From a virus (lineage: Duplodnaviria > Caudoviricetes), in IMG/VR virus record IMGVR_UViG_3300034095_001474, positions 96,001-160,000 of that record: DNA of 64,000 nt. One strand, written 5' to 3'. Shown in pieces: positions 9,534-64,000 of this stretch; within the stretch, counting starts at the first letter, position 1; each line of letters starts with the position of its first letter. The notes beneath the pieces were generated by a model. That model saw only the letters and a program-made list of their open reading frames with translations, did not search any database and was not told where the DNA came from. The position numbers and the translations under genes are program-made.

Positions 9534-9632
9534 AGTAGGACTTAAAGGGAACCACTCATTTCTATCCCTTCATCAAACGGTAATTATCCGTTATTTGGCG
9601 TAATCCATACATTGCTGCACGTGTATCCTACT
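9534..9632 (-). ncRNA. CAGCAA-motif stem RNA (copy J)
   Basis: AGTAGGA/TCCTACT closing stem, GTGCAGCAA near the 5' end. Confidence 0.45.
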
Positions 9633-9637
9633 TATTG

Positions 9638-9709
9638 AGCGAGAAATGGGATTCGAACCCACGACCCTCTGGTTGGTAACCAGATGCTCTACCACTGAGC
9701 TATTCTCGC
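9638..9709 (-). tRNA. tRNA-Gly(ACC), A34
   Basis: GCGAGAA/TTCTCGC acceptor, U73, TCTGG-TT ACC AA-CCAGA. Confidence 0.88.
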
Positions 9710-9713
9710 ATTG

Positions 9714-9786
9714 AGCTAAAAATCAGAATCGAACTGATAACCTCTTCATTACTAGTGAAGTGCTCTACCAATTGAGCTATTTCAGC
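9714..9786 (-). tRNA. tRNA-Thr(AGT), A34
   Basis: Cloverleaf, CTTCA-CT AGT AA-TGAAG. Confidence 0.88.
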
Positions 9787-9845
9787 ATTGAGTGTGGTAG
9801 GTCAGCTGAACCTTGAGGCACCCACACTAGTTATCCCTCTTTTTG

Positions 9846-9916
9846 TGCAGAATGAGGGAGTCAAACCCTCGCCTCGGACTTGGAAGGCCCATGTGCTTTC
9901 GTAACACCTATTCTGC
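9846..9916 (-). tRNA. tRNA-Gly(TCC), somewhat degenerate
   Basis: GCAGAAT/ATTCTGC, TGGGC-CT TCC AA-GTCCG, T loop TTTGACT. Confidence 0.72.
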
Positions 9917-10008
9917 AAATTTCGAAGAAAGACAGTCACGGCCACCGCTGGAAATTCTTCTAATGTTAAAGTTTTGGCAAAATGTGGCTCGACCCAAATT
10001 AACACTTG

Positions 10009-10081
10009 AGCCTCAGATGGGACTCGAACCCATAACCTACTGATTACAAATCAGTTGCACAGCCAATCGTGCTCCAGAGGC
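10009..10081 (-). tRNA. tRNA-Thr(TGT)
   Basis: ACTGA-TT TGT AA-TCAGT. Confidence 0.88.
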
Positions 10082-10153
10082 AAATTGATTTTTATTATCC
10101 CCTTGAACTATGTCAAGTACATGGTTAAAAATCTAAATTCTACCTTAACTAAG

Positions 10154-10235
10154 TGAGGCTAGTAGGAATCGAACCTACTCAGCTTACGCAACAGATTTAC
10201 AGTCTGCCCCAGCTCTCCAACTCTGGCGTATCCCC
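10154..10235 (-). tRNA. tRNA-Tyr(GTA)
   Basis: GCAGA-CT GTA AA-TCTGT, long variable arm. Confidence 0.88.
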
Positions 10236-10242
10236 AAATAAC

Positions 10243-10302
10243 AGAATGGCATGTTGATTTTCAAATCCAAATTGAAGCTTTTTAATTTGCTGCAACCATT
10301 CT
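10243..10302 (-). ncRNA. CAGCAA-motif stem RNA (copy A) with an anticodon-like hairpin
   Basis: AGAATGG/CCATTCT stem, TTGCAGCAA, inner TTCAA-TTTGGAT-TTGAA. Confidence 0.5.
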
Positions 10303-10306
10303 TTAG

Positions 10307-20010: not shown

Positions 20011-20709
20011 TTATTTAAGATTAATTACTATTCCATTCTTAACTTGCTCGATGGATTGGATTACTTTATTTTTAGCCATATCGTTAGCAGCAAGTTTGCC
20101 TTCGATTTCTTGCAATTTAGGTCCATATTTACCATCAATTGCTTGAAGTTTTGTTTCACGGTCTTGGATTTGTGTTTTAAGAGCCTCCATTTGTTGTCTC
20201 ATCAAATCCAATTCACCTACCAATGATTGATTCTCGTTGGTTTTTAAATCAATCGTTTCTTGTTTCTTTGCATTACCTTTAGCGACATACTCATCGTATA
20301 CCTTTCCAATTTCAGCAATATAAAAGTTTGATTGTTCTACCAACTTATCTTTGGTAATAGTTTTGTCCATACCAGAACCCATCATAAATGCCATTTGGTA
20401 AATCTGTGGGTTGTCAGCACCAGCATTCATTACTGCTTGGAAAAACTCATAGAAATCATATCCAGATTGATTCAGCGAATCAAATCCTTTTTCATAAACT
20501 TCTAGAGCATTGTTCAAATGTTCTTGAGATACACCTACTGGTGCGTATGTTGGTGTTGGACTTGGAGTTGGTGTAGTTGGAAAACTAAACGAACTTGGTT
20601 GACTTGTTTCCGCTGTTGGAAACTTAGTCGTGTTACTTGGTGTTTGCTCAACTGTTGGTACTACTGCACTTTCTTCAGTATCTGTTACAAACCATGATTT
20701 AAAACTCAT
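20011..20709 (-). CDS. Coiled-coil protein with a P/T/S-rich linker
   Basis: ORF track; TACCTTTG promoter upstream. Confidence 0.7.
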   Translation of the reverse strand: MSFKSWFVTDTEESAVVPTVEQTPSNTTKFPTAETSQPSSFSFPTTPTPSPTPTYAPVGVSQEHLNNALEVYEKGFDSLNQSGYDFYEFFQAVMNAGADNPQIYQMAFMMGSGMDKTITKDKLVEQSNFYIAEIGKVYDEYVAKGNAKKQETIDLKTNENQSLVGELDLMRQQMEALKTQIQDRETKLQAIDGKYGPKLQEIEGKLAANDMAKNKVIQSIEQVKNGIVINLK

Positions 20710-20808
20710 TTTTCTTTTAATTTAATTGTTAATAATAAACTTTTAACAAAGGTACAAAACTTATTTCGATAAAACAAATATATTCGTAAATATTTTTAAA
20801 TTTTTTTG

Positions 20809-20879
20809 AAATTCATACTGGGCTCGAACCAGTGTCTGATGGCTTATCGCCCTCCGTGGTGCCACTCCACTAATGAATC
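20809..20879 (-). tRNA. Degenerate tRNA-like gene (Ile GAT-like, aberrant anticodon loop)
   Basis: Good acceptor, D and T arms; loop reads GGC-GATAA-GCC, no U33. Confidence 0.45.
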
Positions 20880-20976
20880 AACTATCTCCTTTTGCTCGGC
20901 AAAGCTCCATTTGATAGACGGATTATACGATATCAACTAGATTGCCGTCCAGTATCATTTGTACTCCCCAATTTTG

Positions 20977-21055
20977 TTGCGATTTGAGGAATTGAACCTC
21001 ACGGGGGTATATCTACCAATTCGTCTCATGAAAACGACCCTACACCATTATCGCA
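20977..21055 (-). ncRNA. tRNA-like RNA with a CAT anticodon hairpin placed before the D-loop-like sequence
   Basis: TGCGAT/ATCGCA stem, TCGTT-TT CAT GA-GACGA, AATTGGTAG, T arm TGAGG-TTCAATT-CCTCA. Confidence 0.45.
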
Positions 21056-21061
21056 ATTTTG

Positions 21062-21219
21062 TTCCGATGGAAGGACTCGAACCTTCATTCTCTGGTAAAG
21101 CCACCAGCGATGTATTCCTTTCTACGTTTGTTAAACCATCAGCTTCGTATTGTACACTACTAGGCTTGAAAACCAAACATTCTTTTATACCAAAAGGCAA
21201 CCAATTCATCTTCATCGGG
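21062..21219 (-). ncRNA. 158-nt tRNA-like RNA (acceptor stem + T arm, large interior)
   Basis: CCGATG/CATCGG and GAAGG-TTCGAGT-CCTTC. Confidence 0.45.
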
Positions 21220-21292
21220 TGAAGTTTATAAGGGCCGAGAGATTTACCTCCAGACTTCCACCACTTTGTTTTACTAAACAAAGAAAATAAGT

Positions 21293-21419
21293 AAAAGAGA
21301 AGCTTTGGGTCTTTCGGGGTTTCTGATTGAATGCAATGAGTAAGCTCTACCTACTATAAACCCTTTTTCGGTAATTAATACACTCTACCTTTCAATTACA
21401 GCTTAACTACTTCTCTTTA
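21293..21419 (-). ncRNA. Possible structured RNA
   Basis: AAAGAGAAG/CTTCTCTTT closing stem in a non-coding gap. Confidence 0.25.
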
Positions 21420-21421
21420 TG

Positions 21422-21528
21422 TACAGAATAAAGGATTCGAACCTTTGAGTCCCCGTGTATAGGTATCATACATACCACATTCCCAGACTTTATGTATGCT
21501 CAACCTTAAGCCACTCGGTCAATTCCAT
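21422..21528 (-). ncRNA. Class-II tRNA-like RNA with an 18-nt anticodon loop
   Basis: D arm ACC-GAGTGGCTTAA-GGT, CATACAT/ATGTATG stem, T arm AAAGG-TTCGAAT-CCTTT. Confidence 0.45.
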
Positions 21529-21615
21529 ATTTGAGGCTGAGAAGACCTCTGTGTTGTTATAAAAGAAATGTTTAACATTTCTACGTTCCTTTCTCAATGG
21601 AACAACACAATATTT

Positions 21616-21756
21616 GAGCATCAAGATTGACTTTTTTGTGCTAGCCAGTTACACCACACGCCCACACCTCTGTTAGGACATGCTGGGATTCGAACCCAGA
21701 CCCTTTGTTTTACAGACAATTTTGGTTTATTTGCTGAAACAATCTTTTGTATGCTC
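21616..21756 (-). ncRNA. CAGCAA-motif RNA (copy B) enclosing a circularly permuted tRNA (GTA anticodon hairpin)
   Basis: AAGATTG/CAATCTT carrier stem; order anticodon arm, T arm, closed acceptor CATGTCC/GGGCGTG, D arm. Confidence 0.75.
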
Positions 21757-21783
21757 TGTTTAGGTCAGAGGAACCTTCAATGT

Positions 21784-21920
21784 GGGGACAAGATTAACTT
21801 TTTTTCATACGTGCTCTACCACTGAGCTACCGACCTCTGCGAGACCAGGTGGGATTCGAACCCACGACCACGGCATTAACAAGGCTTGAATTTTTGGTTG
21901 CTGAAATAATCTTTTTACCC
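21784..21920 (-). ncRNA. CAGCAA-motif RNA (copy C) enclosing a circularly permuted tRNA (GTT-derived)
   Basis: AAGATTA/TAATCTT carrier stem; T arm GTGGG-TTCGAAT-CCCAC, acceptor CTGGTCT/AGGTCGG, D arm GCTC-AGTGGTA-GAGC. Confidence 0.78.
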
Positions 21921-21965
21921 TTGCAATATTCTACGCAGTTCCCCACGTAGAGTATTGTTTAACAA

Positions 21966-22601
21966 TTACTTGTTAGATGGTGTCACGTTAATTGACCCAA
22001 CTGAACCAGCTTTAGCTCTTTCGATACCAGCAGCTCTTTCAGCATCTAACTGTAAGTACAATTTAGTTACTTGTTCTTCTAAGAACTTGTTTTGAGTAGC
22101 TAATGTACCAATTTTTGCAGCATTTTCAGCAGCGACAGCTTTGTTCTCAGAGTGGATTAATTTAATCTCATTCTCATACTGAGTTTTCAAAGTTGCAACG
22201 ATAGTTGCTACTTCTTTTTTCACTGTAGCTTCAGTGTTAGTTCTTGCAGTGTCTAAATCAGAACGTAAAGTTGTTAATTCAGATGTTGCGATAGACGTGT
22301 AACCGTTAGATGTTAACCACTGAGTTACAACTCTTTCTTGGTTAGCTCTGAATGATAAGTCTAACTCAACGTCAGCTTGTCTACGTTTTTCAGCGTACTC
22401 AACTTCTAATGCAGAAATTGCTTCTTCTTTATTAGCTACTAACATAGTTAATTGCTCTGATTGGTCCGATAAAGTAGAAACTGTTGCAGTTGCTGCTTTT
22501 AATTCGTTTACAGCTTTAGCGATTTGTGCTGCTGCTTGTCCTAAAACTACTTCTGTGTTTGCAGAAGCTTTTCTTGCTGGTGTACTTTTTGGTGTTGCCA
22601 T
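21966..22601 (-). CDS. Ala-rich coiled-coil protein, directly upstream of the permuted tRNA-like RNAs
   Basis: 211-aa ORF with phage-like codon usage. Confidence 0.75.
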   Translation of the reverse strand: MATPKSTPARKASANTEVVLGQAAAQIAKAVNELKAATATVSTLSDQSEQLTMLVANKEEAISALEVEYAEKRRQADVELDLSFRANQERVVTQWLTSNGYTSIATSELTTLRSDLDTARTNTEATVKKEVATIVATLKTQYENEIKLIHSENKAVAAENAAKIGTLATQNKFLEEQVTKLYLQLDAERAAGIERAKAGSVGSINVTPSNK

Positions 22602-22667
22602 ACTTTTTTTTCTTTTTTTACTTTTTTTTTTATTATATTATGATTATTATATCCTTTTTCTATACTA

Positions 22668-22698
22668 CAAATATACGAACATTTTCTTTAAATGTCAA
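22668..22698 (-). promoter_or_regulatory. Bacteroidota-type promoter
   Basis: TTGACA...TATATTTG. Confidence 0.7.
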
Positions 22699-22780
22699 GT
22701 GTTTTTGTAATTATTTTTAAAAAATTTTAGTATTTAACTATTTGATTACCAATACTTTTCAATGAACTTTTTCTATACTA

Positions 22781-22811
22781 CAAATGTACGAACTCTTTTT
22801 GAATAATTCAA
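22781..22811 (-). promoter_or_regulatory. Bacteroidota-type promoter
   Basis: TTGAAT...TACATTTG. Confidence 0.65.
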
Positions 22812-22844
22812 ACTTTTTTACAATTATTTTTATTTTTTTTTTTG

Positions 22845-22938
22845 TGGAGAGATGTGGATTCGAACCACACTTTGGACGGATATTAAGTTATATCTTTCAA
22901 TAACACCACCCTTACTTTACCAATCAAGCTATCTCTCC
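22845..22938 (-). ncRNA. tRNA-like RNA with an extended anticodon arm (GAA-like loop)
   Basis: Perfect GGAGAGA/TCTCTCC acceptor, D and T arms; GGGTGG/CCGTCC plus GTTAT/ATAAC stems. Confidence 0.55.
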
Positions 22939-23211
22939 AAATTACCCTCTGAGATTACGAGGACTAGATTTTAACGGTTTTTTTCATCTTGAACAAAACT
23001 ATCTCTCAATTACGCCTATAGTTTTTAACACTACTCTTTGATTGAGCCTTTACATTAGTGTCTTACCACATAAAAATAAGTCAACCATTACGATGGGGGT
23101 AAGATGGTCTTCTTCCCGATTCCAACGAGTCCCCACTCTGGCCGTAGGACTATCTGCCAAGACGTTGTTTAAGTATCGTCATCATAACTTATGAGTACCC
23201 CTTACTCATTG

Positions 23212-23336
23212 TCGGAAGGGAAGGAATCGAACCTCCAAATAGCAGTCCCTAATAGTAGTTTTATGCTGAACATAATCTTTAAACAGATTAACTTTTTTTT
23301 ACATACTGCCGCCTTTACCAATTTGGCCACCTTCCG
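23212..23336 (-). ncRNA. tRNA with the CAGCA module inserted in a 58-nt anticodon loop (copy D)
   Basis: CGGAAGG/CCTTCCG acceptor, GCC/GGC D stem, GCAGT/ACTGC anticodon stem, insert AAAAAAAAG-TTAATCT-GTTTA-AAGATTA-TGTT-CAGCA. Confidence 0.78.
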
Positions 23337-23350
23337 AATTTAACTTTAAG

Positions 23351-23423
23351 TGGTGAGAGGTGGATTTGAACCACCGACACATGAGTTTTCAGCCCATTGC
23401 TCTACCAACTGAGCTATCTCACC
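23351..23423 (-). tRNA. tRNA-Phe(GAA)
   Basis: ATGGG-CT GAA AA-CTCAT. Confidence 0.9.
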
Positions 23424-23428
23424 ATAAT

Positions 23429-23610
23429 AACCGAAGATAGATTTATGGAATCTTGCTGCAACCATAAACATCTCTTATAGTCTTTATACTATCGTCATAA
23501 ACATTTATGAGCTTCACACACCATTAGAGAGCCGAGTATTTCTACTTATCCTTAGTGCGACACCCTCCGACACGTCTCTCCACGCTTCCTATCCTACGTC
23601 TTTTTCGGTT
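23429..23610 (-). ncRNA. CAGCAA-motif RNA (copy E)
   Basis: AACCGAA/TTCGGTT outer stem; TTTATGG-TTGCAGCAAGATT-CCATAAA hairpin. Confidence 0.4.
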
Positions 23611-23651
23611 ACTTTATTTTTAATACTTCAATGAACTTAATTTTAACACTG

Positions 23652-23682
23652 CAAATGTACAAACAATATTTGATATATGCAA
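23652..23682 (-). promoter_or_regulatory. Bacteroidota-type promoter followed by boxA-like AGTTCATTGAA
   Basis: TTGCAT...TACATTTG. Confidence 0.65.
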
Positions 23683-23888
23683 ATGTTTTTTATTTTTTTT
23701 TTAATCTAAATAGATGTCGTGTTGAATTACAGCGTAAGCATCCAGCTTAGCACCCAATTCAAAATAGTAACCGAACATGTCGTCACTAATTGCATTCTCT
23801 AACATATAAATTATATAGTTAGCCATCATCTGCATTGCTTTTTGTAGTATCTTTCTTTTCATATTACAAATGTACAACAATTTTTTGA

Positions 23889-24077
23889 TTAATCCAAATT
23901 TTTATTAATATTTTCTTTAAGATTTTTGTTCCCTTTTGAATTTGTTGGGTCAAACGGACAATGCCTACAAATATTTCCGCAGCATGTACCTCTTTTTTTA
24001 AGATAGCGTTCAGTATAAACTATCTTTCCTTTTTCTAGGTAATAATCGATTCCTTCTTCAAAACTAAATTTATCCAT
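23889..24077 (-). CDS. DUF5522-like Cys-rich small protein
   Basis: YLKKRGTCCGNICRHCPF. Confidence 0.75.
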   Translation of the reverse strand: MDKFSFEEGIDYYLEKGKIVYTERYLKKRGTCCGNICRHCPFDPTNSKGNKNLKENINKNLD

Positions 24078-28939: not shown

Positions 28940-29263
28940 ATGGGATATGTTTATTTATTTTTAGAGGTTGATAAAGAAGGTAATGAAGCTTATAAGATTG
29001 GTATTACTAAAAATGAGCCAATCAAACGAGTGAAACAATTGCAAACTGGTAATTCACGCAAATTGACTTACCTTAAATCTTATAAATCAGAAAACTACTT
29101 AAAAGTAGAACGTTTTTTACATAGAAAATATATGATAAAAACTGAAGCTGAAAATGAATGGAGAACTCTTACTGATGAACAAGTTATTTCATTCATTAAA
29201 GATTGTGAGGAAGCTGATGAAAATATCAACTTCCTTTTAAAAAACAATCATTTTTATAAGTGA
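28940..29263 (+). CDS. GIY-YIG/T5orf172-like nuclease
   Basis: GYVY...YKIGITK...RVKQLQTGN...ENEW. Confidence 0.8.
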   Translation: MGYVYLFLEVDKEGNEAYKIGITKNEPIKRVKQLQTGNSRKLTYLKSYKSENYLKVERFLHRKYMIKTEAENEWRTLTDEQVISFIKDCEEADENINFLLKNNHFYK

Positions 29264-30429
29264 TAGAATTCTCTTCTAATCTTAATCAACAACTTGTTAA
29301 CCAATTCTGGGTCAATACCTTTAGGTAAATCAGATTCATCAAAAATCCTATCCATCTCTTTGATTTCAGCTTCTGCTGTATCAATAAGTGAATCTAAATC
29401 AATTTCGCCTCTACGAATAGACAATAGATATTCTCTATCTGGTCGTCTTACAATGATTCCTTCACCACGTCCAATTTCTTGTGACATTCTAATAAGTCTC
29501 ATACAATGCATCATATTCTTACCATCAATTTGTTGTCCATGTTTAACCGTATCAACGTATCTTGCAGTGTTTCTATTCTCAACCCATTCCATATATTCTT
29601 TATAGTCCTTGCAGTGAGCTGTATACCCATCTTTGTTGAACATGATGTTACAGATAGGTGTTTCACCCTTTGGAATACTTGATAAACGTAATTGATTGGA
29701 TTCAGCAGCATTATCAGAACCGCCAACCTTAGCAAGAGCCTTATAACCAAATCCCATCGCTTTACCTTGTGATTTTAACTCATTCTTCATAAATTCTCTT
29801 TGTTCTTCACTAAAAAACTCACCAAAACAAGCAGCCGCAATATTATCGTAAAAAACAGCATATAAATCTTTTGCGTGTGGAACATTGGTAATACCTAAGA
29901 ATTTTTCTTCATAACCCAGACCTTCACACCATTTTTTCCATGGAACTGATTGTTCACCTTGAATAACATAACAGAAATCCAACACATCTTTACGAGTAAC
30001 TGAACCTTGTTCTATGTTTTGTTTCTTGTTAAGACCTCTAGCTTTAGATATTTGTTGTACAGCATACCCACCAAATGAGTTCTTACACCCTTTGGTGATA
30101 AAATCAGCCTTGTGGTCCAATACATATTGAAACAATGGATGTTTTGTAATGATACAATCTTCTGGTGTGTTTAATAACTCCAATACTGTCGGATTTGAGC
30201 TTCCCATTAGTTCTAAGAACCTTTTAAGTTCCCAACCAGTATAATCCTTGTTTACGTTTAATTGTTCAACGTAACCAGTCCCTAAGATGTAATCTTGTGG
30301 TAAGATATATACAAACTTCTTATCAACATCAGATGTTGGAGTTTGTGTTCCATATGCTTGTGACCCAATGATACATTCAAATAGGATAAGCCCGTTTTGT
30401 TCTAAGTATTCGTGTGTAATCTTTTCCAT
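29254..30429 (-). CDS. RlaP-like (Pol-beta) nucleotidyltransferase
   Basis: IGSQAYGT.TPTSDVD, NPTVLELL, DGKNMMHCMRL, LLSIRRG. Confidence 0.8.
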   Translation of the reverse strand: MEKITHEYLEQNGLILFECIIGSQAYGTQTPTSDVDKKFVYILPQDYILGTGYVEQLNVNKDYTGWELKRFLELMGSSNPTVLELLNTPEDCIITKHPLFQYVLDHKADFITKGCKNSFGGYAVQQISKARGLNKKQNIEQGSVTRKDVLDFCYVIQGEQSVPWKKWCEGLGYEEKFLGITNVPHAKDLYAVFYDNIAAACFGEFFSEEQREFMKNELKSQGKAMGFGYKALAKVGGSDNAAESNQLRLSSIPKGETPICNIMFNKDGYTAHCKDYKEYMEWVENRNTARYVDTVKHGQQIDGKNMMHCMRLIRMSQEIGRGEGIIVRRPDREYLLSIRRGEIDLDSLIDTAEAEIKEMDRIFDESDLPKGIDPELVNKLLIKIRREFYHL

Positions 30430-30672: not shown

Positions 30673-30711
30673 TTCTCTTTATTTTTAACAAAGGTAAGTA
30701 TAATATTCCAA

Positions 30712-31176: not shown

Positions 31177-31177
31177 A

Positions 31178-42553: not shown

Positions 42554-43455
42554 TATTTATTAGTATTTGTAATCTCAGTAACAACACCTTTTATCATAAA
42601 TGATTTAATGTCTTGCCACTTTGTTATTTCATTGCTCATTACTGGCTTACCACCTTCTGGGTTTATCGCAATGGTTATGTGTGGTATTTCATTTTTGGAA
42701 TTAAACCCTTCAACTTGTACTGCCAAAGCCATATCAGATAACCCTAATTTGGTCACAGTAAGTACCACTTCTTTACCCAATTCAGATTTATCTTTCAACT
42801 CACCCAAATTTATTGTCATATGATGTGCAAATACTTTCCAATCTTGTGGTATCCATATACCCAACTTATCCATCAACGTACCTTTGGATTGTCCATCCAA
42901 CAATACACAAGAGTACAACACATCAGATTTTTTGTACATATCTTTAGATGCAAGTATTTTCTTTATGGTTAATGGACCAACAGATTTATGTGATTGTATC
43001 ATTTTTTGTATTTCAACCAATGGAACACCATGTGTATTTGATTCAGCTAATTGTTCAGCAGACAAACCTCTAGTACCCACATCAAATATTTGTATGTTGT
43101 TATCATCTAACCCCATTTCCAATGCTGCAACAACGTATGCTTTAGCACCATTAGCCTTTATGTTGGTGTTATCTATAACAACTGGCGTAATACCATCTTT
43201 AATAGATTTGATTGCGTTAGATAAGTTCTTAGAGTGCATTCTATTGAATGCTTTAGAATCGCCAGAAGTTTTTATCTTAGCAAAGAAACCTCTGTAATCA
43301 CCAGTCGCTGTTATAAGGTCATCAGTTGAATGGATAATACCGTCCAGCACAATAGACTTAGCCATTGTAGACTTTCCAGCACCTGGAATACCACGCATCA
43401 CAAACAATTCTTGTGTTGGTCTAGTTACATCGATATTTAATATATTCTTTTTCAT
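42553..43455 (-). CDS. Polynucleotide-kinase-like P-loop fused to a 2H cyclic phosphodiesterase (RNA end healing)
   Basis: RGIPGAGKST, IDNTN, THGVP; HHMTI and PHITI. Confidence 0.82.
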   Translation of the reverse strand: MKKNILNIDVTRPTQELFVMRGIPGAGKSTMAKSIVLDGIIHSTDDLITATGDYRGFFAKIKTSGDSKAFNRMHSKNLSNAIKSIKDGITPVVIDNTNIKANGAKAYVVAALEMGLDDNNIQIFDVGTRGLSAEQLAESNTHGVPLVEIQKMIQSHKSVGPLTIKKILASKDMYKKSDVLYSCVLLDGQSKGTLMDKLGIWIPQDWKVFAHHMTINLGELKDKSELGKEVVLTVTKLGLSDMALAVQVEGFNSKNEIPHITIAINPEGGKPVMSNEITKWQDIKSFMIKGVVTEITNTNK

Positions 43456-43492
43456 ACCACAAAAGTACGAATTTAATTCTTATAAAACAAAC

Positions 43493-44425
43493 TTATTTAA
43501 TTATTTTAATAATACTAGGGTTATATATTACATAGTGTGTTGTGTCTCTATATTCATCACCAACCATAATACCATCAATACCTAACTTAACGCAATTCCT
43601 AACAAATCCAACACCATCATACCTATAAAAATCAATCCAAACTTGCAATAAAACATCTTTGTCATTATCATTATATTGAAAAGCAGATTGTAAAAATTTA
43701 ACTAACCCTTTAGGGTATGGGTAATCATAATTAACTACATCATCTTTCCAATCCTCAGCCATCATAACCAACTTTTTTACAATTGCTGGTGTAATGGTTA
43801 ATTTACCAACTTTATCACCATACATTATCCTAGGAGTTAACTCAACATTAAAAACTCTACCTTTTTCTCCAGCATATCCGTATGCTTCTTGTTCTGATGA
43901 TGTAAAATAAACACCAGGACCATTTTGGTCAGTTGCTTCTTTACCACCTACAAACTCATCGCTAAAACCAGAAAAATCATTAGGACTACCGTGGTATGCT
44001 ATTAAATTTAAATTTTTGTATTTGTCTTCACCTAATAAAGATTCTTTAAGCATCTTCTTAATTATTTTTTTTGTTTCGTTTTCTCCCATCATAAATTTTG
44101 AATTAGGGAATAGTACTATTTCACCAAACTTACCATCTGGATATTTTGTTATAATAGCATCATATCCCTTGCTCATTAGTATGTTAGTTAGTTTTTCACC
44201 TTTAGCTTTATATTGCTTAGCTAAATCTCTTTTATATTCTATTTGAGTATCATCAGTGATATCTATATATAAAGGGTTATTTATTATAGCTTTACCTTCA
44301 ATCCAACCGTCTGGTACAAAATTAGTATTTTGCCTAACATATGTACCTTTTGGTTCAACATCTTGACCAAACCTAGAACCCAATTTAGGTGCTGGTTCTG
44401 TATTTTTAATTATATTTAATTCCAT
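43493..44425 (-). CDS. ADP-ribosyltransferase-like (polyvalent-protein ART type) protein
   Basis: AYHGS...GPGVYFTS...AYGY; internal IKKMLKES. Confidence 0.55.
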   Translation of the reverse strand: MELNIIKNTEPAPKLGSRFGQDVEPKGTYVRQNTNFVPDGWIEGKAIINNPLYIDITDDTQIEYKRDLAKQYKAKGEKLTNILMSKGYDAIITKYPDGKFGEIVLFPNSKFMMGENETKKIIKKMLKESLLGEDKYKNLNLIAYHGSPNDFSGFSDEFVGGKEATDQNGPGVYFTSSEQEAYGYAGEKGRVFNVELTPRIMYGDKVGKLTITPAIVKKLVMMAEDWKDDVVNYDYPYPKGLVKFLQSAFQYNDNDKDVLLQVWIDFYRYDGVGFVRNCVKLGIDGIMVGDEYRDTTHYVIYNPSIIKIIK

Positions 44426-44441
44426 ACTAATAAATATTGTT

Positions 44442-45833
44442 TTATTCGTTAAAGATTTTTTTAACTGAACCATCTTCATATATCAAAATCAACACCCCTT
44501 TGGTGTTCAAATCAACATCAGTACCATATAAGTTAACGATACGAACAACAATACGTATTTTTTTAGAGTTATCGACAGAAATTATATCATGATTTTTAAA
44601 TTTACCATCATAATCAGTTTGTTTTAATCTATAATAAGTAACGTTATCGTTTAAATCGTAATCATCATACTCATAATAATTTTGTGTGTTAGAATTACCA
44701 GCACCATTTATTGTTGCTATATTATAGAAGATAACACCATCTTGTGTCTTTTCGATATTGAAATAATCATTGTTGATTTCACTAGCTGTTGACCAAGTTA
44801 AATGGTTGTATCTTTCATTAACCTCTGCTTCAAAATATAATAATTCAATTGGTAACGCAACTGGGTCGGCTAATCCAATTTTAATGTTAGCTCTTAAACC
44901 ACCTCTAACTCCATCAGCAGTTGGATATGAAGCATCTAAAACTTTATAAGCAACTGCATTTGTTTTTGGTGTATAATAAAACCACGGTTCATCACTTGAC
45001 CAACTATTATTACGATTTTCCCACTTAATAAGTAAATTATTTATATTGTTCCAAGGGAAAGGAGTTTGCAACACAATTTCAACCCACCCAACAGTCCAAT
45101 TTACAGTCCCATCATACACTAATGTATAATTTGAAGATACGTAATTTGTTTGAGCATTCTCTTTTACAGTAGAAGACGGAAATGATGATAATGTGGTATG
45201 ACCCATATAAATCTTTTGGTTTGTTGCCGTATAAGGAATTGATGTTGCTGGGTCAACTTGAAAACGGATTTTTGTAATATTACCAACAGTGTTAATTTCT
45301 GACTGGAGATAAATCATATCAGTCCAACCATGTTTATAATAATGATTTGATGGAACATTATAATCACTAACTTCTCCACCACCAATACTTACAATAGTAC
45401 CTCCACTAGAATTACCTTTTTGGTATTTGATACGTGCATTTATTCCATTAAGAGTAGCACACGTATTACTAGATGTCCATCTAGTAAGTAACACCGAATA
45501 AGTTCCAGAAGTTGAACAATACCAAGTTATTTCAGATTGTGTGTTATTATAATCATCACTCTCTGCTAATAAAGTACCACCAGTACCAGTTGAATATAAT
45601 CTAAGGTAGGTATCAACAGTTGTTTCACCTACTGTTGAAAATGTGTATTCACTACCAGCAGTGGCGGCAAAATTAAATGCTCTCCTACCAGAACTATAGG
45701 TTGTACTATATTGTATAGTAGTAGTTGGTGTTATTGCAACATTTGTATTTGCAGTATTGCAATATTGAGATAAGGAGAAATTACTCGATAAAACTAATAT
45801 AACTAGACTTAATAATATATTTAACTTTTTCAT
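44442..45833 (-). CDS. Bacteroidota T9SS-substrate-like secreted protein
   Basis: Signal peptide, DTYLRLY...ESDD domain, LPIELLYF..LTWSTASEINNDYFNIEK, short CTD. Confidence 0.75.
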   Translation of the reverse strand: MKKLNILLSLVILVLSSNFSLSQYCNTANTNVAITPTTTIQYSTTYSSGRRAFNFAATAGSEYTFSTVGETTVDTYLRLYSTGTGGTLLAESDDYNNTQSEITWYCSTSGTYSVLLTRWTSSNTCATLNGINARIKYQKGNSSGGTIVSIGGGEVSDYNVPSNHYYKHGWTDMIYLQSEINTVGNITKIRFQVDPATSIPYTATNQKIYMGHTTLSSFPSSTVKENAQTNYVSSNYTLVYDGTVNWTVGWVEIVLQTPFPWNNINNLLIKWENRNNSWSSDEPWFYYTPKTNAVAYKVLDASYPTADGVRGGLRANIKIGLADPVALPIELLYFEAEVNERYNHLTWSTASEINNDYFNIEKTQDGVIFYNIATINGAGNSNTQNYYEYDDYDLNDNVTYYRLKQTDYDGKFKNHDIISVDNSKKIRIVVRIVNLYGTDVDLNTKGVLILIYEDGSVKKIFNE

Positions 45834-56257: not shown

Positions 56258-56302
56258 ATTACAAATGTACTAAAAGTTTTTCGATTATACAAATTTTTAC
56301 AT

Positions 56303-56334
56303 AAAAAAAAAAGCCCATCATATGATGAGCTTTT
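56303..56334 (-). terminator. Intrinsic terminator ending the 56-57 kb RNA operon
   Basis: AGCTCATCA-TA-TGATGGGCT plus a U tract. Confidence 0.75.
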
Positions 56335-56588: not shown

Positions 56589-56659
56589 TTGGCCAAAATC
56601 TGTTTTTTTTTTCTTTTAAGTATAGATAGTTTTAATTGCTGAAAAGATTTTTTTGCCAA
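56589..56659 (-). ncRNA. CAGCAA-motif RNA (copy G), minimal
   Basis: TTGGC/GCCAA and AAATCT/AGATTT stems, TTTCAGCAA, 3' A-run. Confidence 0.55.
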
Positions 56660-56666
56660 TATTGTT

Positions 56667-56930
56667 ATCACAAGATGATTGTTTGCTTTTTTCATCCCAG
56701 CGGATTAACCCATTTTACGTCTTCGGCTTTGCTTTGGCGAGAGTCTACTGTTGTTCGACTACATCCTACTTGCACCTTTTGGGGTGGTCTGACGTTGACT
56801 TTTGTTTTCATTGGAAGTCTTACCATGTTATCTATATCCGTTGTTTGACAATGTTTTCACATTCTCTCACATACCATTTAGATTCTATCATAGTTTGTAT
56901 TTTTTGGTTGCAGAACCCATCTTTCTTGAT
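56667..56930 (-). ncRNA. CTGCAA-variant motif RNA (copy H)
   Basis: AAGATG/CATCTT stem, TTCTGCAACCAAAAAA. Confidence 0.45.
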
Positions 56931-56973
56931 AATATTTTTAATAAATTAAAGAACGTTTTGAAATAAATATATA

Positions 56974-57004
56974 CAAATGTACGAACACTTTATTGTTTTG
57001 TCAA
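56974..57004 (-). promoter_or_regulatory. Bacteroidota-type promoter followed by boxA-like CGTTCTTT
   Basis: TTGACA...TACATTTG. Confidence 0.75.
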
Positions 57005-57924: not shown

Positions 57925-58303
57925 TGGTGGAGTATTGGGGAGTCGAACCCCAGTGTTGAATATTCTTCAATGCTTTCTACATGTTTATCTAGTTTCTAAT
58001 CCTAGCAAAGTTGTGCTACGTTATTTATACCGATGGAGGTGCAGCGACCATCGTTGCTAATTTTTACAACTAAGAAATGTTGGTTCTTGGTGGATTACCA
58101 CTATCGGTGGACTTTACCACCATTTGCAATATTAGGCTACTGCAAGCTCTCCGTTAGAAACGAATGTCGCTTCATCTAGGAAATTTTCTGATACGATAAA
58201 ATCGTTGTCAATTCAAATTTTAATAGACAGATTTAAGTGCTTCCAATCTAGCACTACATGCTTACTACCTACGACTATATTCAGTCAATACCATTAATAC
58301 CCC
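57925..58303 (-). ncRNA. ssrA: tmRNA
   Basis: GGGGTAT/ATACTCC acceptor with G3-U70, 5' TTGAC, T arm GGGG-TTCGACT-CCCC, encoded ACCA, tag frame 58209-58132 ending LAVA-stop. Confidence 0.92.
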
Positions 58304-58375
58304 ATAAAATTAAAGAACGTGTTTAATAAATACGTGGGTTTCGGTTAAAAAACCCACTTATTTAATTTCTTATTA

Positions 58376-58418: not shown

Positions 58419-59144
58419 TTATTTTTTAGCTTTAACAATTTTATTTGTTATAATACCATCGATAATACCATAAGCTTTAGCTTCATCAGCATTCAACCAC
58501 ATATCACGATTTGTGTCTTCCAATACTTGTGCTGGGTCTTTATCAGTATATTCACCTAATAATCTGAACAACTCAGTATTGTATTTTTCACCTTCAGCAA
58601 TAGAAACACGAATATCTTGTAAGTTACCTTGTGCACCAGTTGATACTTGATGTAACATTACTCTACTATGAGCAAGACTATAACGTTTCCCTTTTGTACC
58701 AGCACCCAATAAGATACTTCCCATACTTGCTGCCATACCAGTGTTGATTGTAACTAAATCAGATGAGATGTAGTTCATAACGTCAACGATTGATAGACCG
58801 CTTTTAACGCTTCCTCCTGGACTATCGACATGCAGTGTGATGTCTTTTACTTCTAAGTTATCCAAGAACATTAGCTGTGCTTGTACAACTGTACTCATTC
58901 TGTCGTTAACTGGACCAGCTAACCAGATAATTCTATCCATCATCAAACGTGAGAAGATATCCATCTGTGTTACACGTAATTCTCTTTCTTCAAGAATATA
59001 TGGTGTTAATGATGAAGAAGGAACCATAAGTGAAGCTTGCGACCCATAAAGTTTTTCTTGCATTTGTTCCCATTGGTAATATTCCATTGAGGAAACTCCC
59101 ATATGCTTAATAGCATAGTCTCTAAATTCGTTATTTAAATCCAT
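58419..59144 (-). CDS. clpP: ATP-dependent Clp protease proteolytic subunit
   Basis: DIFSRLMMDRII, DSPGGSV, AASMGS, MLHQ, DTNRD.WL.A.EAK.YGIID. Confidence 0.95.
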   Translation of the reverse strand: MDLNNEFRDYAIKHMGVSSMEYYQWEQMQEKLYGSQASLMVPSSSLTPYILEERELRVTQMDIFSRLMMDRIIWLAGPVNDRMSTVVQAQLMFLDNLEVKDITLHVDSPGGSVKSGLSIVDVMNYISSDLVTINTGMAASMGSILLGAGTKGKRYSLAHSRVMLHQVSTGAQGNLQDIRVSIAEGEKYNTELFRLLGEYTDKDPAQVLEDTNRDMWLNADEAKAYGIIDGIITNKIVKAKK

Positions 59145-59952: not shown

Positions 59953-60978
59953 CTAATTAGTTTGATGTGTTGCAACATTTTTTGTTAATTTTTCTTTTAA
60001 ATCGATAATTATCGATTTAACTTCATCATCAACACTTTTTGGCATATAAACGCCCAATGTAATCAATAAGTCACCTCTACCATCTTTACCGTATGTTTTT
60101 ATACCTTTATAAGGGATTCTAAGGTTGTTTCCAACATCACTATACTCTGGAATACTAATTCTTATTTTAGAACCCTCTATCGTCTCTATTTCGATTTTAT
60201 CACCCAATACTAATTGAGGATAAGATAACTTTAAGTTCATTTTTAAATCAGAACCAGACCTAGTGTATGTTTTATGTGGTGCTTCATGAATTTTTATATG
60301 TAAATCACCTTCATTACCACCCTTTACCCCATGACCTTTACCAGACATAACAAATGTCATTCCTTCTATAACCCCAGCTGGTATATCAACTTCAACATTT
60401 TCAACTGTATCAACCAAACCATAACCACTACATGTTTTACATTCTTTGGTATAAGAATTACCTATACCATTACATGCAGTACATGTAGTTACTTGTTGAA
60501 TTTGACCCATTGGTGTGTTGTATATATTTACAACATGTCCACTACCACCACACATAGAACAATCAACAATATCTTCACCACCATGACCTTTACAAGTTCC
60601 ACATTTTGCTTTTCTATTATATTTGTATGTTTTTTTAGTACCAGTAAATATTTCTTCAAGTGTTAATTTAACTAGAAGTGACATATCGGCACCAACGATA
60701 GTTTGAGGTTGGGTATGAAAACCACCACGGAAATGGTTTCTACCACCAAATGGTGAACCTTGTTGATTACCATTTGAATGACCAAATCTATCGTATTTAT
60801 TTTTCTTATCTGAATCTGACAATGTATCATAAGCTTCAGATATCTCTTTAAATTTATCTTCAGACCCACCTTTATCTGGATGATGCTCTTTTGCTAGCTT
60901 TCTATAAGATTTTTTAATTTCATCAGATGTAGCACCTTTTTTAAGTCCTAAGACTTCATAATAATCTTTTTTGCTCAT
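59953..60978 (-). CDS. dnaJ: DnaJ chaperone
   Basis: DYYEVLG, HPD, four CxxCxGxG repeats, C-terminal domain. Confidence 0.95.
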   Translation of the reverse strand: MSKKDYYEVLGLKKGATSDEIKKSYRKLAKEHHPDKGGSEDKFKEISEAYDTLSDSDKKNKYDRFGHSNGNQQGSPFGGRNHFRGGFHTQPQTIVGADMSLLVKLTLEEIFTGTKKTYKYNRKAKCGTCKGHGGEDIVDCSMCGGSGHVVNIYNTPMGQIQQVTTCTACNGIGNSYTKECKTCSGYGLVDTVENVEVDIPAGVIEGMTFVMSGKGHGVKGGNEGDLHIKIHEAPHKTYTRSGSDLKMNLKLSYPQLVLGDKIEIETIEGSKIRISIPEYSDVGNNLRIPYKGIKTYGKDGRGDLLITLGVYMPKSVDDEVKSIIIDLKEKLTKNVATHQTN

Positions 60979-61035
60979 GCTAAATATTTATTTTTTTACA
61001 AATGTACTTAATATTATAATAAAAAACAACTTTTT

Positions 61036-61689
61036 ATGATTTATAGGGTAATATTAACATCAAACGGGAAATACAAGAAGACTTTACATAGATGTAAAAC
61101 CAAAGAAACCGTTTTTAACAATTTTCATAAATTGATAGATGAGAATAATATTTTATATCCTAAAAGATTTTTAATTACCAATGTAATTAAAAAAGTTAAA
61201 TATCAAATTTGTGTAACTAAACCCACAGAAGAAACTGATACTTTCAGAATTCTTAGGGATGATTATGGTAAATTATATACTGAAAAACCTCTGGGTGATT
61301 GGACTATCTTGACTTCTGAAGATTATGATGTTGAAGAAACATTTTCTATCTATGGATATGAAGGAGAAGAAAGACCTACAATTAGAGAAATAGTTAAAAG
61401 GTTGATGTATGGTGCTCACGCCAAAAAAATGGTCAAACAAATTATTGTCGTTCATAATAAACTAATTATTTATAATGAGGACCAATTTGACATGGTTTTA
61501 TGTAAAAATCTAGTAGATGCACAAAGACTGCATCACACCCTAGCAAAGATAGTTAAAAAACAAAAGATAAAAAGTCTTATGTTTATGGGGACAGCCACAC
61601 CAGCTAGTGTAGGACGAATTTATGATATCATACATGAAGAAACTGGCTGGCCATACACCAAAATTAGAAGAACTAGTGCTAGACCTTAA
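61036..61689 (+). CDS. Hypothetical protein
   Basis: 217-aa ORF filling the gap, convergent with the next gene. Confidence 0.7.
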   Translation: MIYRVILTSNGKYKKTLHRCKTKETVFNNFHKLIDENNILYPKRFLITNVIKKVKYQICVTKPTEETDTFRILRDDYGKLYTEKPLGDWTILTSEDYDVEETFSIYGYEGEERPTIREIVKRLMYGAHAKKMVKQIIVVHNKLIIYNEDQFDMVLCKNLVDAQRLHHTLAKIVKKQKIKSLMFMGTATPASVGRIYDIIHEETGWPYTKIRRTSARP

Positions 61690-62066
61690 ACACGTGTTTC
61701 TGTAACGAAATCAATTAGTATTTCACCAATATTTTCGTCAACACCTTTTTGATAAACATATACTTTATCTTCTGGTAATCTTGCATCTAAATTAACTGGG
61801 TAACGCATCGAAACATAAGTTACATCACCTTCTTGTTTATTAAAAGGAATGTGCTTGATTAATGTTTCATATAGGTTTGGGTGTACAGATACACCTATTT
61901 CAGCTTTTTCATCCAACCCTTTAATTTGAACGACTAAAAGTTTTATTTTAGTAACAAATGTACTATTCCAATCTTTTTGCATAGTATCACGTTCTGGCAT
62001 TATATCTAAATATTCTTTCCAACCGTAATAGTTCCATTTTTCTTGCCATTTACTTTCCATAATCAA
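61686..62066 (-). CDS. Hypothetical protein
   Basis: ORF track. Confidence 0.55.
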   Translation of the reverse strand: MIMESKWQEKWNYYGWKEYLDIMPERDTMQKDWNSTFVTKIKLLVVQIKGLDEKAEIGVSVHPNLYETLIKHIPFNKQEGDVTYVSMRYPVNLDARLPEDKVYVYQKGVDENIGEILIDFVTETRV

Positions 62067-62305
62067 TCAACAAATAAATTTTCCAATTTTTTAACCAATT
62101 CTGTTATTTTAACATTGTTGGTTAAAATTCTTGTTTCAACATGTTCTGGTATGTTCACAACATATTCTGATTTCAATTTTGAGTTCTCTCTTTGTAGTTT
62201 ATCGCTCTCTCTTAGGTATTCATCATATAGTTTACCTTTATCTTCTCTAGTCATTACATTTACATTTACCATTTGGGTTATTACCACAATCACATGGTTT
62301 TTCAT
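62063..62305 (-). CDS. Hypothetical protein (probable start at MTREDK)
   Basis: ORF track. Confidence 0.5.
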   Translation of the reverse strand: MKNHVIVVITQMVNVNVMTREDKGKLYDEYLRESDKLQRENSKLKSEYVVNIPEHVETRILTNNVKITELVKKLENLFVD

Positions 62306-62654
62306 TTAGAATTTCTGCCATTTTAGCAATTTCTTCAACAATTTCTTCGTCAGTCATATCAATTTCTTCATCTAAAACGTTGATATCTTCAGCAATAGCA
62401 AAACTTTTCTTGATGTCTTGAACCATTTCATTTATTTTAGACATATCAGCTTCAGCAACGATTGATGGATTGATGCACTCAACTCTTTCTTCACCTTTTG
62501 TTGGAATAAAGAATGCCATTGCGTTTGCATTTTTATGTATCAACATAGTGTTTATTGATTCAGCAAATGGTTGGATAATTTCTTTAACTTTCATCATTTC
62601 TGCATCTAAGTAAAAGACAAGCACCATCGGATAATTTGTTTCATTTTCTTTCAT
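62247..62654 (-). CDS. Hypothetical protein
   Basis: ORF track. Confidence 0.6.
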   Translation of the reverse strand: MKENETNYPMVLVFYLDAEMMKVKEIIQPFAESINTMLIHKNANAMAFFIPTKGEERVECINPSIVAEADMSKINEMVQDIKKSFAIAEDINVLDEEIDMTDEEIVEEIAKMAEILNEKPCDCGNNPNGKCKCND

Positions 62655-62658
62655 TTTT

Positions 62659-62928
62659 TTAATTGTTTAAGTATTCCTCGAATTTAACTTCTTGGATTAT
62701 ATCTTTTTTATTTATTTTAACTAGCGATTCATTGCTCACAAAATGTTCAACAATAAGCTCATTTATTCTGGATTCTTTATTTTTTTCACCGTATTCGGTA
62801 AAACCGTTTAGTTTAACGTCACCACCACCTTGGTTCAATATCAAATAAATTAGATATTCTGTGATAACTTTTTCACCATCCATGGTGCTTTTTAATTTGT
62901 CAATTTCTTTTACAACAATTCTTTTCAT
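62659..62928 (-). CDS. Hypothetical protein
   Basis: ORF track. Confidence 0.5.
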   Translation of the reverse strand: MKRIVVKEIDKLKSTMDGEKVITEYLIYLILNQGGGDVKLNGFTEYGEKNKESRINELIVEHFVSNESLVKINKKDIIQEVKFEEYLNN

Positions 62929-63041
62929 TCGTCTTTCTTTAAATATAATGTTATGTATTAAATAATAAACAATAGTATCGATTTTTTTTCATAGTGTAAA
63001 CACTAAAAACAAAAAAACCCCACAATTGTGAGGCTTTTTAA

Positions 63042-63216
63042 TGACTTGTTACAAGATACGGGGGCATTTACTTCAAACCCAGTTAAGAAGTTTTCCAATT
63101 TTATAAAAATAGAGGTTTTGGGAACCTACGTGGAATCTTTCGATTCACTTTCCATGTATATAATTGTTTTTTTTAAGTTTTTTGGTTGCAGAATGCATCT
63201 TTTAAAAAACAAGTCA
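63042..63216 (-). ncRNA. CTGCAA-variant motif RNA (copy I), directly downstream of the TROVE-like gene
   Basis: TGACTTGT/ACAAGTCA and AAGATGC/GTATCTT stems, TTCTGCAACCAAAAAA. Confidence 0.55.
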
Positions 63217-63217
63217 T

Positions 63218-63258
63218 AAAAAAGAGGGATGGGTCATTTAACCATACATCCCTCTTAA
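63218..63258 (-). terminator. Terminator-like hairpin after the TROVE-like gene
   Basis: AAGAGGGATG...CATCCCTCTT plus a U tract. Confidence 0.75.
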
Positions 63259-63262
63259 TATT

Positions 63263-64000
63263 TTAAATAGTTACTGGTGCGTAACGCTCAGAGTCAATAA
63301 CACTCAACATCATAGATATTGGAGTCATGTCTTTACCAGCTAATAAATTAGTAAGCAATGCTGGAGAGAAACCAGATACCAACGCAGTACCTTCTTTATC
63401 AAATTGTACTGGTTTGTTATTATCTCCTCTTGATTGGATGTTCCAATATACTAACTTAGGCATTGTGTACCCAGCTTGAGTATAAAGAGACTCAACCATA
63501 TCTTGAGCAGTCCACCCACGAACACTACCACAATTGAATTCCATGTCTGACAACATAAGAATCATTGTTGGCATTTCTTCTGGTGCAACATTTGACTCAA
63601 CAGCTTTGTTTAAAAGCATTCTAAACGCTTTTTCAACATTAGTATCATATCCAACTGGCCCTTGAATTTGTCTGTATCTCTCAGACAAACTACCTTTAAG
63701 GTATTGTAATGTTGGGTTAGATGTAAACGTAATGAATGCATCTTTGAAAGGACCTTCGTTTCTTTCTGAAATGTATAACCCCAAAGAGATTGCTACATCC
63801 ATACAAGTTACGTTAGCGTTGTTCCCAGCTGGAGTACCCATTGACCCAGAAACATCCACCATTGGTAAAAGTCTCTCGTTGTTACCTTCCATGTAGTTAG
63901 GCAACGCATCCCATTGTACGTTAGCACCTTTGGTGTTACCAGTTTTCATGTTTTTAACGATGTCGTATGGATATACTGCACCAGCATTTATTTTAGCCTC
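63263..64000 (-). CDS. DUF2828 / TROVE-vWA (Ro60-like) protein, C-terminal part; runs off the window end
   Basis: KINAGAVYPYDI, QWDAL, MIDAS DVSGSM, AISLGLYISE, FITF, TN, LSDMEF, YWNI, SGFS. Confidence 0.8.
   Translation of the reverse strand, partial: EAKINAGAVYPYDIVKNMKTGNTKGANVQWDALPNYMEGNNERLLPMVDVSGSMGTPAGNNANVTCMDVAISLGLYISERNEGPFKDAFITFTSNPTLQYLKGSLSERYRQIQGPVGYDTNVEKAFRMLLNKAVESNVAPEEMPTMILMLSDMEFNCGSVRGWTAQDMVESLYTQAGYTMPKLVYWNIQSRGDNNKPVQFDKEGTALVSGFSPALLTNLLAGKDMTPISMMLSVIDSERYAPVTI

Follow-up and report, generated by a model that had tools for sequence, protein, structure and literature searches.

A family of GCAA-handle RNAs in a lake-water phage, linked to the gene for a protein with a predicted Ro60 fold

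What are the small RNA elements that recur among the transfer RNA (tRNA) clusters of a large phage from a lake-water metagenome, and which protein do they belong with? In 64,000 nucleotides of this phage (the window: positions 96,001 to 160,000 of IMG/VR record IMGVR_UViG_3300034095_001474, numbered here from its first letter), a first-pass annotation had described ten dispersed RNA copies, lettered A to J, and read them as a modular set bound by a protein related to Ro60, whose gene lies at the end of the window. It had called for checks by covariation, co-occurrence with DUF2828 genes, comparison with YrlA RNAs and transcription. That reading is supported by the analysis reported here, and it withstood each of the named refuting conditions that computation can address. 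The RNAs form a conserved, modular family linked to the gene of a protein of predicted Ro60 fold, and these RNAs, here called GCAA-handle RNAs, are probably Y-RNA-like partners of that divergent Ro60-like DUF2828 protein.

The window is AT-rich (~32% GC), and its minus strand carries all 33 tRNAs, the transfer-messenger RNA (tmRNA), nearly every gene and all handle copies. A common plan was found in eight of the ten listed copies, directly in B, C, D, G, H, I and J, and in permuted form in E. A closing helix of 6-8 bp (H1), whose 5' strand starts ARRAT and whose 3' strand finishes ATYYT, is followed after 0-2 nucleotides (nt) by TNCNGCAA (U-N-C-N-G-C-A-A; TTCAGCAT in E) and then by an A-rich stretch, so that the claimed arrangement of closing helix, C(A/T)GCAA and A-rich linker was borne out in these eight. 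The H1 sequences vary from copy to copy and still pair, also as claimed. The composite pattern ARRAT-N1-4-TNCNGCA[AT] matches the minus strand of the whole window eight times and the plus strand not once, against an expectation of 0.95 and a maximum of 5 in 300 runs of a first-order Markov simulation, the pattern being post hoc, taken from the very copies counted. All eight matches are intergenic, and each folds with H1 closing. The bare eight-base word TNCNGCAA or CWGCAA plus any nearby helix did not separate the strands (12/19 versus 10/20), so support for the family comes from the composite pattern and from the comparison with other phages. Copies A and F did not hold up as members, since they have CAGCAA in a hairpin loop, do not match the composite pattern and find no comparative support. 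Nor was a consistent 1-nt bulge, reported earlier on the 3' strand, seen in the folds of B, C or G. The copies are as follows:

63053-63201, minus strand: copy J, H1 AAGATGC/GTATCTT, motif TTCTGCAA at 63186-63193, directly downstream of the DUF2828 gene
56672-56923, minus strand: copy I, 252-nt structured body, H1 AAGATGG/TCATCTT, motif TTCTGCAA at 56908-56915
56589-56659, minus strand: copy H (minimal), outer helix TTGGC/GCCAA, H1 AAAATCT/AGATTTT (56595-56651), motif TTTCAGCAA
56344-56423, minus strand: copy G, H1 AGGATAGT/ACTATTCT, motif TTCAGCAA, directly after tRNA-Met and before a terminator
23213-23336, minus strand: copy E, tRNA-shaped, anticodon loop replaced by a capped handle TAATCT-loop-AAGATTA-TG-TTCAGCAT (23263-23290)
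21790-21913, minus strand: copy D (YrlA-like), H1 AAGATTA/TAATCTT, motif TTTCAGCAA, with AAAAAAAGTT ahead of the H1 3' strand
21623-21746, minus strand: copy C (complete circularly permuted tRNA-like body), H1 AAGATTG/CAATCTT, motif TTTCAGCAA
10243-10302, minus strand: copy B (small), between tRNA-Gln and tRNA-Tyr, H1 AGAATGG/CCATTCT, motif TTGCAGCAA
23442-23468, minus strand: copy F (doubtful), short hairpin TTTATGG/CCATAAA with TTGCAGCAA in the loop, just before tRNA-Phe
9535-9631, minus strand: copy A (doubtful), helix GTAGGA/TCCTAC with TGCAGCAA in a hairpin loop 6 nt inside, fold z-score -2.3

The handle is constant and the bodies are variable, in agreement with the modular design proposed earlier and with the range of interiors described, from unstructured (H) through T-arm-like hairpins (G) to tRNA-like domains (C, D and E). 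The interior of H is A-rich, B has little structure inside its handle, and the body of G consists of a palindromic hairpin and a T-arm-like hairpin. Copy J, which is flanked by two terminator-like hairpins with no tRNA nearby, ends in a 3' module composed of a CTTC/GAAG hairpin (63071-63090) whose GGG loop is able to pair with CCCCC (63060-63064). Copy C contains an anticodon-like arm (21705-21719) with loop CUGUAAA, identical to that in the phage's own tRNA-Tyr, a T arm (21683-21699), a closed acceptor hairpin (21657-21682) and a D arm, and its minimum free energy fold is composed of these four arms plus H1. Copy D has a T arm (21849-21865), a closed acceptor-like hairpin (21830-21848) and a D arm, without an anticodon arm. 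Copy E scores 47.5 bits with the Rfam tRNA model (RF00005; gathering score 29), with a 53-nt insert that begins after AUGUAA and replaces the 7-nt anticodon loop; ARAGORN with the intron option also detects it.

The same RNAs are found beside one gene in other phages. Counting from DUF2828 loci to handle RNAs, 60 of the 78 related IMG/VR loci with enough downstream sequence have TNCNGCAA downstream of the DUF2828 gene, no more than 150 nt from its stop and on the gene strand, against a background of 0.06 per 150 nt. At least 8 of the remaining 18 have an inserted open reading frame (ORF) and then an I-type RNA, a few hundred to ~1100 nt on. Two arrangements recur: in group 1 the gene is followed by a J-type RNA, and in group 2 by a small RNA and then by a long RNA homologous to copy I, a homology that extends to at least 25 other loci. 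The first-pass annotation had placed copy I right after the gene in the window; the adjoining copy there is J, and it is in other phages that homologues of I, and of H, adjoin the gene. The eight-base word is invariant in all alignments, and every copy has UNCNGCAA, as do more than 60 related loci.

Relatives of the DUF2828 protein are found in 711 cultured phage records, where they are mostly annotated as hypothetical, and the hosts of these phages include E. coli, Salmonella, Listeria, Staphylococcus, Campylobacter, Vibrio and mycobacteria. Felixounavirus Alf5, with E. coli K12 as host, carries four handle RNAs in a tRNA cluster right after its DUF2828 gene, of the form AGACCnn-n-TACAGCAA...nnGGTCT, with a permuted tRNA-like body in one of them. 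Near its DUF2828 gene, the cultured Aeromonas phage Aeh1 carries two E-type RNAs. One of these, deposited as a 122-nt 'tRNA-Val (CAC)' (AY266303.2, 96384-96505; L103 7193-7314), consists of a tRNA body in which a capped handle, GAATCT-loop-AGATTC-TT-TACCGCAA, stands where a normal anticodon loop would be, and is probably mis-annotated.

Alignments of homologues of the window copies and of the gene-adjacent RNAs showed that H1 covaries in the J, I and small types. For the J type (15 homologues aligned), five of the seven H1 pairs are compensatory, the loop pairing GGG/CCC is changed to GAG/CUC in three sequences, and one GTTC/GAAC variant also backs the hairpin module. In the small type 99.3% of cells are paired, four of seven H1 pairs are compensatory, and the covariation score beats all 500 shuffles and all slid controls. 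RNAalifold gave 28 pairs for the I type, 13 of them with compensatory changes, and three of its six H1 pairs are compensatory. A covariance model (R1) built only from the small gene-adjacent RNAs of other phages ranked copy H first (24.8 bits, E 8e-4) and copy B second (18.7 bits, E 0.026) in a search of 128 kb with filters off.

Copies J, I, H, G, D and B recur syntenically in a 306-kb relative (G004), with H1 altered yet complementary. The B counterpart lies there between tRNA-Gln and tRNA-Tyr with H1 AGGGTGG/CCATCCT, and another tRNA cluster of that genome carries a further handle copy. In a closer relative, G001, copies G, H, I and J recur. Counterparts of G follow tRNA-Met in G001 (AGAATAGA/TCTATTCT) and in G004, those of H show compensatory H1 changes in both genomes, and the D homologue in G003/G004 has wholly different hairpin and T-stem sequences with the pairing retained. 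Copy A had no counterpart at the syntenic place of G004, and copy F had none upstream of tRNA-Phe in G003/G004. The I-H-tRNA-G unit of G001 (L083 ~1140-1900, minus strand) has an HNH-like ORF inserted between two tRNA-Met genes, and the I-type RNA of this genome keeps its handle with the body swapped for an unrelated sequence that is also found in G004. A close relative of the phage among deposited phages was not found in a distant DNA search with 20700-24000, which returned tRNA matches only.

The gene at the end of the window is the following:

63263-64000, minus strand: C-terminal 245 aa of the Ro60-like protein, PF25043 (DUF7788) E 5.5e-45, gene overrunning the window end

A full-length relative of 475 aa (L001:9311-10738), 97% identical, contains PF11443 (DUF2828) and PF25043 (DUF7788), and a cluster search of the AlphaFold database (AFDB) confirmed membership in the DUF2828/DUF7788 family. 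A PDB sequence search gave no match. An AlphaFold2 model built from 25 homologues (predicted local distance difference test score, pLDDT, 77) was compared with known structures by Foldseek, and its 13 best PDB matches are all Ro60/TROVE structures, matched over the full length with ~500 aligned columns. They include 9kop, 9l5y, 1yvr and 2nvo at E 8e-9 to 2e-5, the best being Ro60 of the Thermus phage phiLo; AFDB Swiss-Prot matches are headed by Ro60 from five species together with telomerase p80. By these matches the predicted model has the architecture of a HEAT-repeat ring with a C-terminal vWA domain, and the gene is, as claimed, Ro60-like, with DUF2828 and DUF7788 domains and a predicted fold that is that of Ro60 over the full length. 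Residues D279, S281, S283, T350 and D382 (DxSxS...T...D) are invariant in the 25 homologues, and are assigned to the MIDAS of the vWA domain by motif only.

Several of the RNAs were present in RNA libraries. In RNA runs picked for holding this stretch, in which assembled contigs record presence and not level, ends or strand, copy I is covered by contigs of four lake or freshwater libraries (four studies, depth 6-680), copy J by contigs in two (X16 and X19), and the tmRNA by contigs of three lake libraries. Copies G and H were without contig cover, apart from one X17 contig reaching H, which is not evidence of absence. As the transcription check that had been called for, this is weak evidence, a hint at expression and not proof. 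Contig joints in runs X15 and X16 link the 3' region of I and of J back to the 5' region, with 5 and 35 letters between (spans 56665-56933 and 63016-63223). Such joints may come from circular RNAs or, more probably, from family members that lie side by side in related phages. The joint over I diverges after 48 nt, which would fit a neighbouring copy of the family in a relative and not a circle. Tandem I-I or J-J copies were not found in 80 DNA loci.

Neither Rfam nor the papers searched contained a description of these RNAs or of their pairing with DUF2828. At gathering level, Rfam detected only tRNAs and the tmRNA in the window and nothing on four related loci, and it has no family for J, I or G. 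Four known systems resemble parts of this one. The Y RNAs of bacterial and phage Ro60 (Rsr) include YrlA, YrlB and Yrn1. Bacterial YrlA RNAs combine a tRNA-like domain with a 5' GNCGAA(N)G word thought to contact Ro60 (PMC4201824), and Ro60 homologues are encoded beside their RNAs (PMC4201824, PMC12135203). Shared with YrlA are a ring-shaped HEAT-repeat and vWA protein (predicted here) encoded beside small RNAs, a stem made from the two RNA ends, whose 5' strand carries a conserved single-stranded word, and, in C and D, a tRNA-like domain in permuted order, with its T arm, closed acceptor-like stem-loop and D arm and with the ends of the RNA lying on the anticodon side. In contrast, the genomes considered here have eight or more RNAs each, with many body types and mostly scattered in tRNA clusters, and an inverted topology is also present, in which a tRNA body bears the capped handle (E). 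As to gene adjacency, it is J that abuts the DUF2828 gene, whereas D, the YrlA-like copy, lies ~41 kb away.

The closest precedent from a phage is Ro60 of phiLo, which binds the host PNPase as well as two Yrl RNAs that carry a CGAA word (PMC12135203). Both systems have a phage-encoded Ro60 homologue, adjacent Y-like RNAs, a stem formed by the 5' and 3' termini and, in an internal loop, a 4-nt core that is conserved, and no structure matches the protein model better than phiLo Ro60 (PDB 9KOP, 9L5Y; E 8e-9 to 8e-8). The proteins share ~18% sequence identity, the core is CGAA in phiLo and GCAA here, and phiLo has just two RNAs, neither of them reported to have a tRNA-like body. It is for phiLo that binding and the recruitment of PNPase have been demonstrated.

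Class I RNAs of dictyostelids, reported to be confined to Dictyostelia and to have their own promoter element, contain an 11-nt word with invariant T3, C6, C9, A10 and A11 (PMC7919456). They share with the handle RNAs a short 5'/3' stem, a word that follows its 5' strand immediately and a remainder that varies. The consensus of Rfam RF01414, GaUcuC-CUUACAGCAAU, includes the phage word, and the five invariant positions are all matched by UUUCAGCAA in C, D, G and H. All 56 positions of the Dicty_Class_I_RNA model aligned with copy H at 25.6 bits, below the gathering score of 41.5, and the small RNA of one related locus (L030) gave no match to the model at E up to 1. The Class I RNAs are eukaryotic, and their known binder is an RRM protein. 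A likeness was also found to tRNA genes of archaea and red algae that are circularly permuted or contain introns, since C and D have the 3' tRNA part ahead of the 5' part with leader and trailer pairing, and E carries an insert at the anticodon loop; however, most handle RNAs are without tRNA parts and D is without an anticodon arm.

Several points weigh against pairing these RNAs with the DUF2828 protein in the manner of Y RNAs and Ro60. In place of GNCGAA(N)G the handle carries UNCNGCAA, and the protein belongs to DUF2828/DUF7788 and not to Pfam TROVE: the full-length relative did not match PF05731 at E up to 0.1, the only matches being PF11443 and PF25043. In the comparison with YrlA, copy D aligns over the full RF02553 model with 41.4 bits (E 4.7e-7), short of its gathering score of 69, and the same model matches 9 of 14 control genomes at the same E-value; copy C was not reported by it, and nothing in the whole window reached its gathering score. 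Fold-energy z-scores of single copies are unremarkable (-0.1 to -2.3). Most window copies sit 6-54 kb from the DUF2828 gene, within tRNA clusters. The co-occurrence was counted one way, and the RNA runs were chosen as described above. Linkage to a gene does not by itself prove contact between RNA and protein.

Some of these points could instead favour other explanations. The RNAs may be a real functional family whose partner is not the DUF2828 protein but another phage or host RNA-binding protein, such as an Rnp1A-like RRM protein, an RNA ligase or RlaP. The distance of most copies from the gene agrees with this, as does the likeness of the handle to that of Class I RNA, whose only demonstrated direct binder is the RRM protein Rnp1A (PMC7919456). 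We regard this as unlikely in view of the tight adjacency to DUF2828 repeated over many phage lineages, the predicted Ro60 fold of the protein and the precedent of Ro60 homologues encoded beside their RNAs (PMC4201824, PMC12135203).

The elements could also be processing or punctuation signals of polycistronic transcripts of tRNAs and non-coding RNAs (nuclease entry sites, spacers or stabilising hairpins), next to DUF2828 merely through the place of that gene at the edge of a tRNA cluster. Copies B, G, E and A do lie within a few nt of tRNAs, and the Alf5 gene directly precedes a tRNA cluster. This explanation appears improbable: J follows the gene with no tRNA nearby, both in the window and in the group-1 relatives, and stands between two terminator-like hairpins; the bodies are themselves conserved and covarying; and phages of very different hosts all keep the eight-nucleotide word unchanged while their H1 varies freely, a pattern better explained by a specific binding site for a protein than by a nuclease site.

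It is most unlikely that the handle marks tRNA pieces to be joined into working tRNAs, with E an intron tRNA, C and D permuted tRNA genes, H1 bringing the ends together for cutting and phage ligation, and the DUF2828 protein at most a helper, as the insert in the anticodon loop of E, the four permuted arms and tRNA-Tyr-like loop of C, the back-joints over I and J, and the Rnl1-like and Rnl2-like ligases and kinase/phosphoesterase encoded in the window might suggest, given that H, B, G, I and J bear the same handle without joinable tRNA parts, that D has no anticodon arm, that E has a short variable loop when the tRNA-Tyr of the same phage has the long arm that bacterial tRNA-Tyr requires, that the joint over I diverges, and that neither a bulge-helix-bulge in the sequence nor a splicing endonuclease among ~40 Pfam-scanned ORFs was noticed, no dedicated search having been made.

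The handle RNAs share the minus strand with many genes related to RNA repair and quality control. RlaP through ART in the following list make up an RNA-repair and ADP-ribosylation block (29254-44479):

29254-30429, minus strand: RlaP
33236-34543, minus strand: PARP-like protein
35267-36331, minus strand: Rnl2-like RNA ligase
36810-38207, minus strand: ATP DNA ligase
39632-40789, minus strand: T4 Rnl1-like RNA ligase
42553-43455, minus strand: kinase plus phosphodiesterase (kinase/phosphoesterase)
43493-44479, minus strand: ART
52437-53552, minus strand: CCA-adding-type nucleotidyltransferase
57925-58303 / 58419-59144, minus strand: phage tmRNA (tag EATFVSNGELAVA), directly downstream of the ClpP gene
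59953-60978, minus strand: DnaJ

TROVE proteins of jumbo phages have been discussed within an RNA-repair setting of this kind (PMC7824862). Two further features, read from the sequence, frame the I-H-tRNA-Met-G unit:

56969-56990, minus strand: promoter-like box GTTCGTACATTTGTA, upstream of the unit
56301-56334, minus strand: intrinsic-terminator-like hairpin with a T run, closing the unit

The promoter-like box contains TAnnTTTG, which may be a Bacteroidota-type -7 element and would then suggest a Bacteroidota host. Boxes of the GTTCGTACATTTGTA(G/A)TAT type recur on the minus strand before RNA clusters and genes (~22690-22710, 22780-22800, 23640-23660 and 58320-58340).

In the region 20800-23700 (minus strand), non-standard tRNA-like genes that were missed or given low scores by default tRNA finders form a cluster. 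T arms and acceptor stems were found at ~20990-21065, 21060-21170 and 21422-21519 (minus strand), an anticodon arm of 39 nt in the gene at 22845-22938 (minus strand) and a Tyr(ATA) call at 20808-20879 (minus strand). A T-arm-like hairpin is also present at 26938, and two possibly structured stretches, 23000-23200 and 23480-23620, have TATGA(T)GACGATA in common. One tRNA of the window has an anticodon that reads TAG:

55024-55095, minus strand: tRNA with anticodon CTA (ARAGORN call Pyl), kept in the 306-kb relative G004 (199106)

That relative also has a 'Stop' tRNA call. Recoding of TAG through the CTA tRNA was considered for a capsid-like gene, which was checked for a splitting in-frame stop, and was set aside as its two ORFs look separate.

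For the GCAA-handle RNAs as partners of the Ro60-like protein, a mechanism can be proposed by analogy. The handle would be composed of H1, the invariant single-stranded U-N-C-N-G-C-A-A and the A-rich linker, and would leave the body free to vary: unstructured in H and B, a T-arm-like hairpin in G, a pseudoknot module in J, a 250-nt fold in I, and a circularly permuted tRNA or YrlA-like domain in C and D, with E inverted as a tRNA body bearing the capped handle. The RNAs may be transcribed with tRNA operons or just behind the protein gene, and tRNA-processing nucleases would release them. The handle would then dock on the Ro60-like protein in the way that Y RNAs and YrlA dock on Ro60 through their (G)NCGAA word, and the body would set what the particle meets, for instance as a tether to PNPase-type exonucleases or to tRNA-modifying or repair enzymes. 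Alternatively, the bodies could offer look-alikes of tRNA parts to host tRNA-cutting nucleases. Such a tether or decoy role would fit the RNA repair and quality-control genes encoded around.

Ro60 with its Y RNAs is a classic RNA-surveillance particle that is still poorly understood, and it is already known in bacteria and phages. The system described here differs from it in having a different protein family, a GCAA word, many more RNAs per genome and both topologies of fusion to tRNA. Tentatively, DUF2828 and the GCAA-handle RNAs may represent a second ancient Ro/Y-RNA branch across phages, bacteria and eukaryotes, with the amoebal Class I RNAs as its eukaryotic members and with phage bodies making differently addressed particles that steer or decoy tRNA-cutting, tRNA-repair and RNA-decay enzymes; we consider this possible, though doubtful. 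The finding provides a concrete lead on the binding partner of the amoebal Class I RNAs, and the system is open to direct test in a phage of E. coli K-12. If the handle RNAs are the partners of DUF2828 proteins, a large hidden class of phage non-coding RNAs would gain a name, a protein and a rule by which to search for it, namely the helix together with UNCNGCAA. Oddities of phage tRNA clusters, among them 'tRNAs' that are too long and fragments that resemble tRNAs, would then have an explanation as well.

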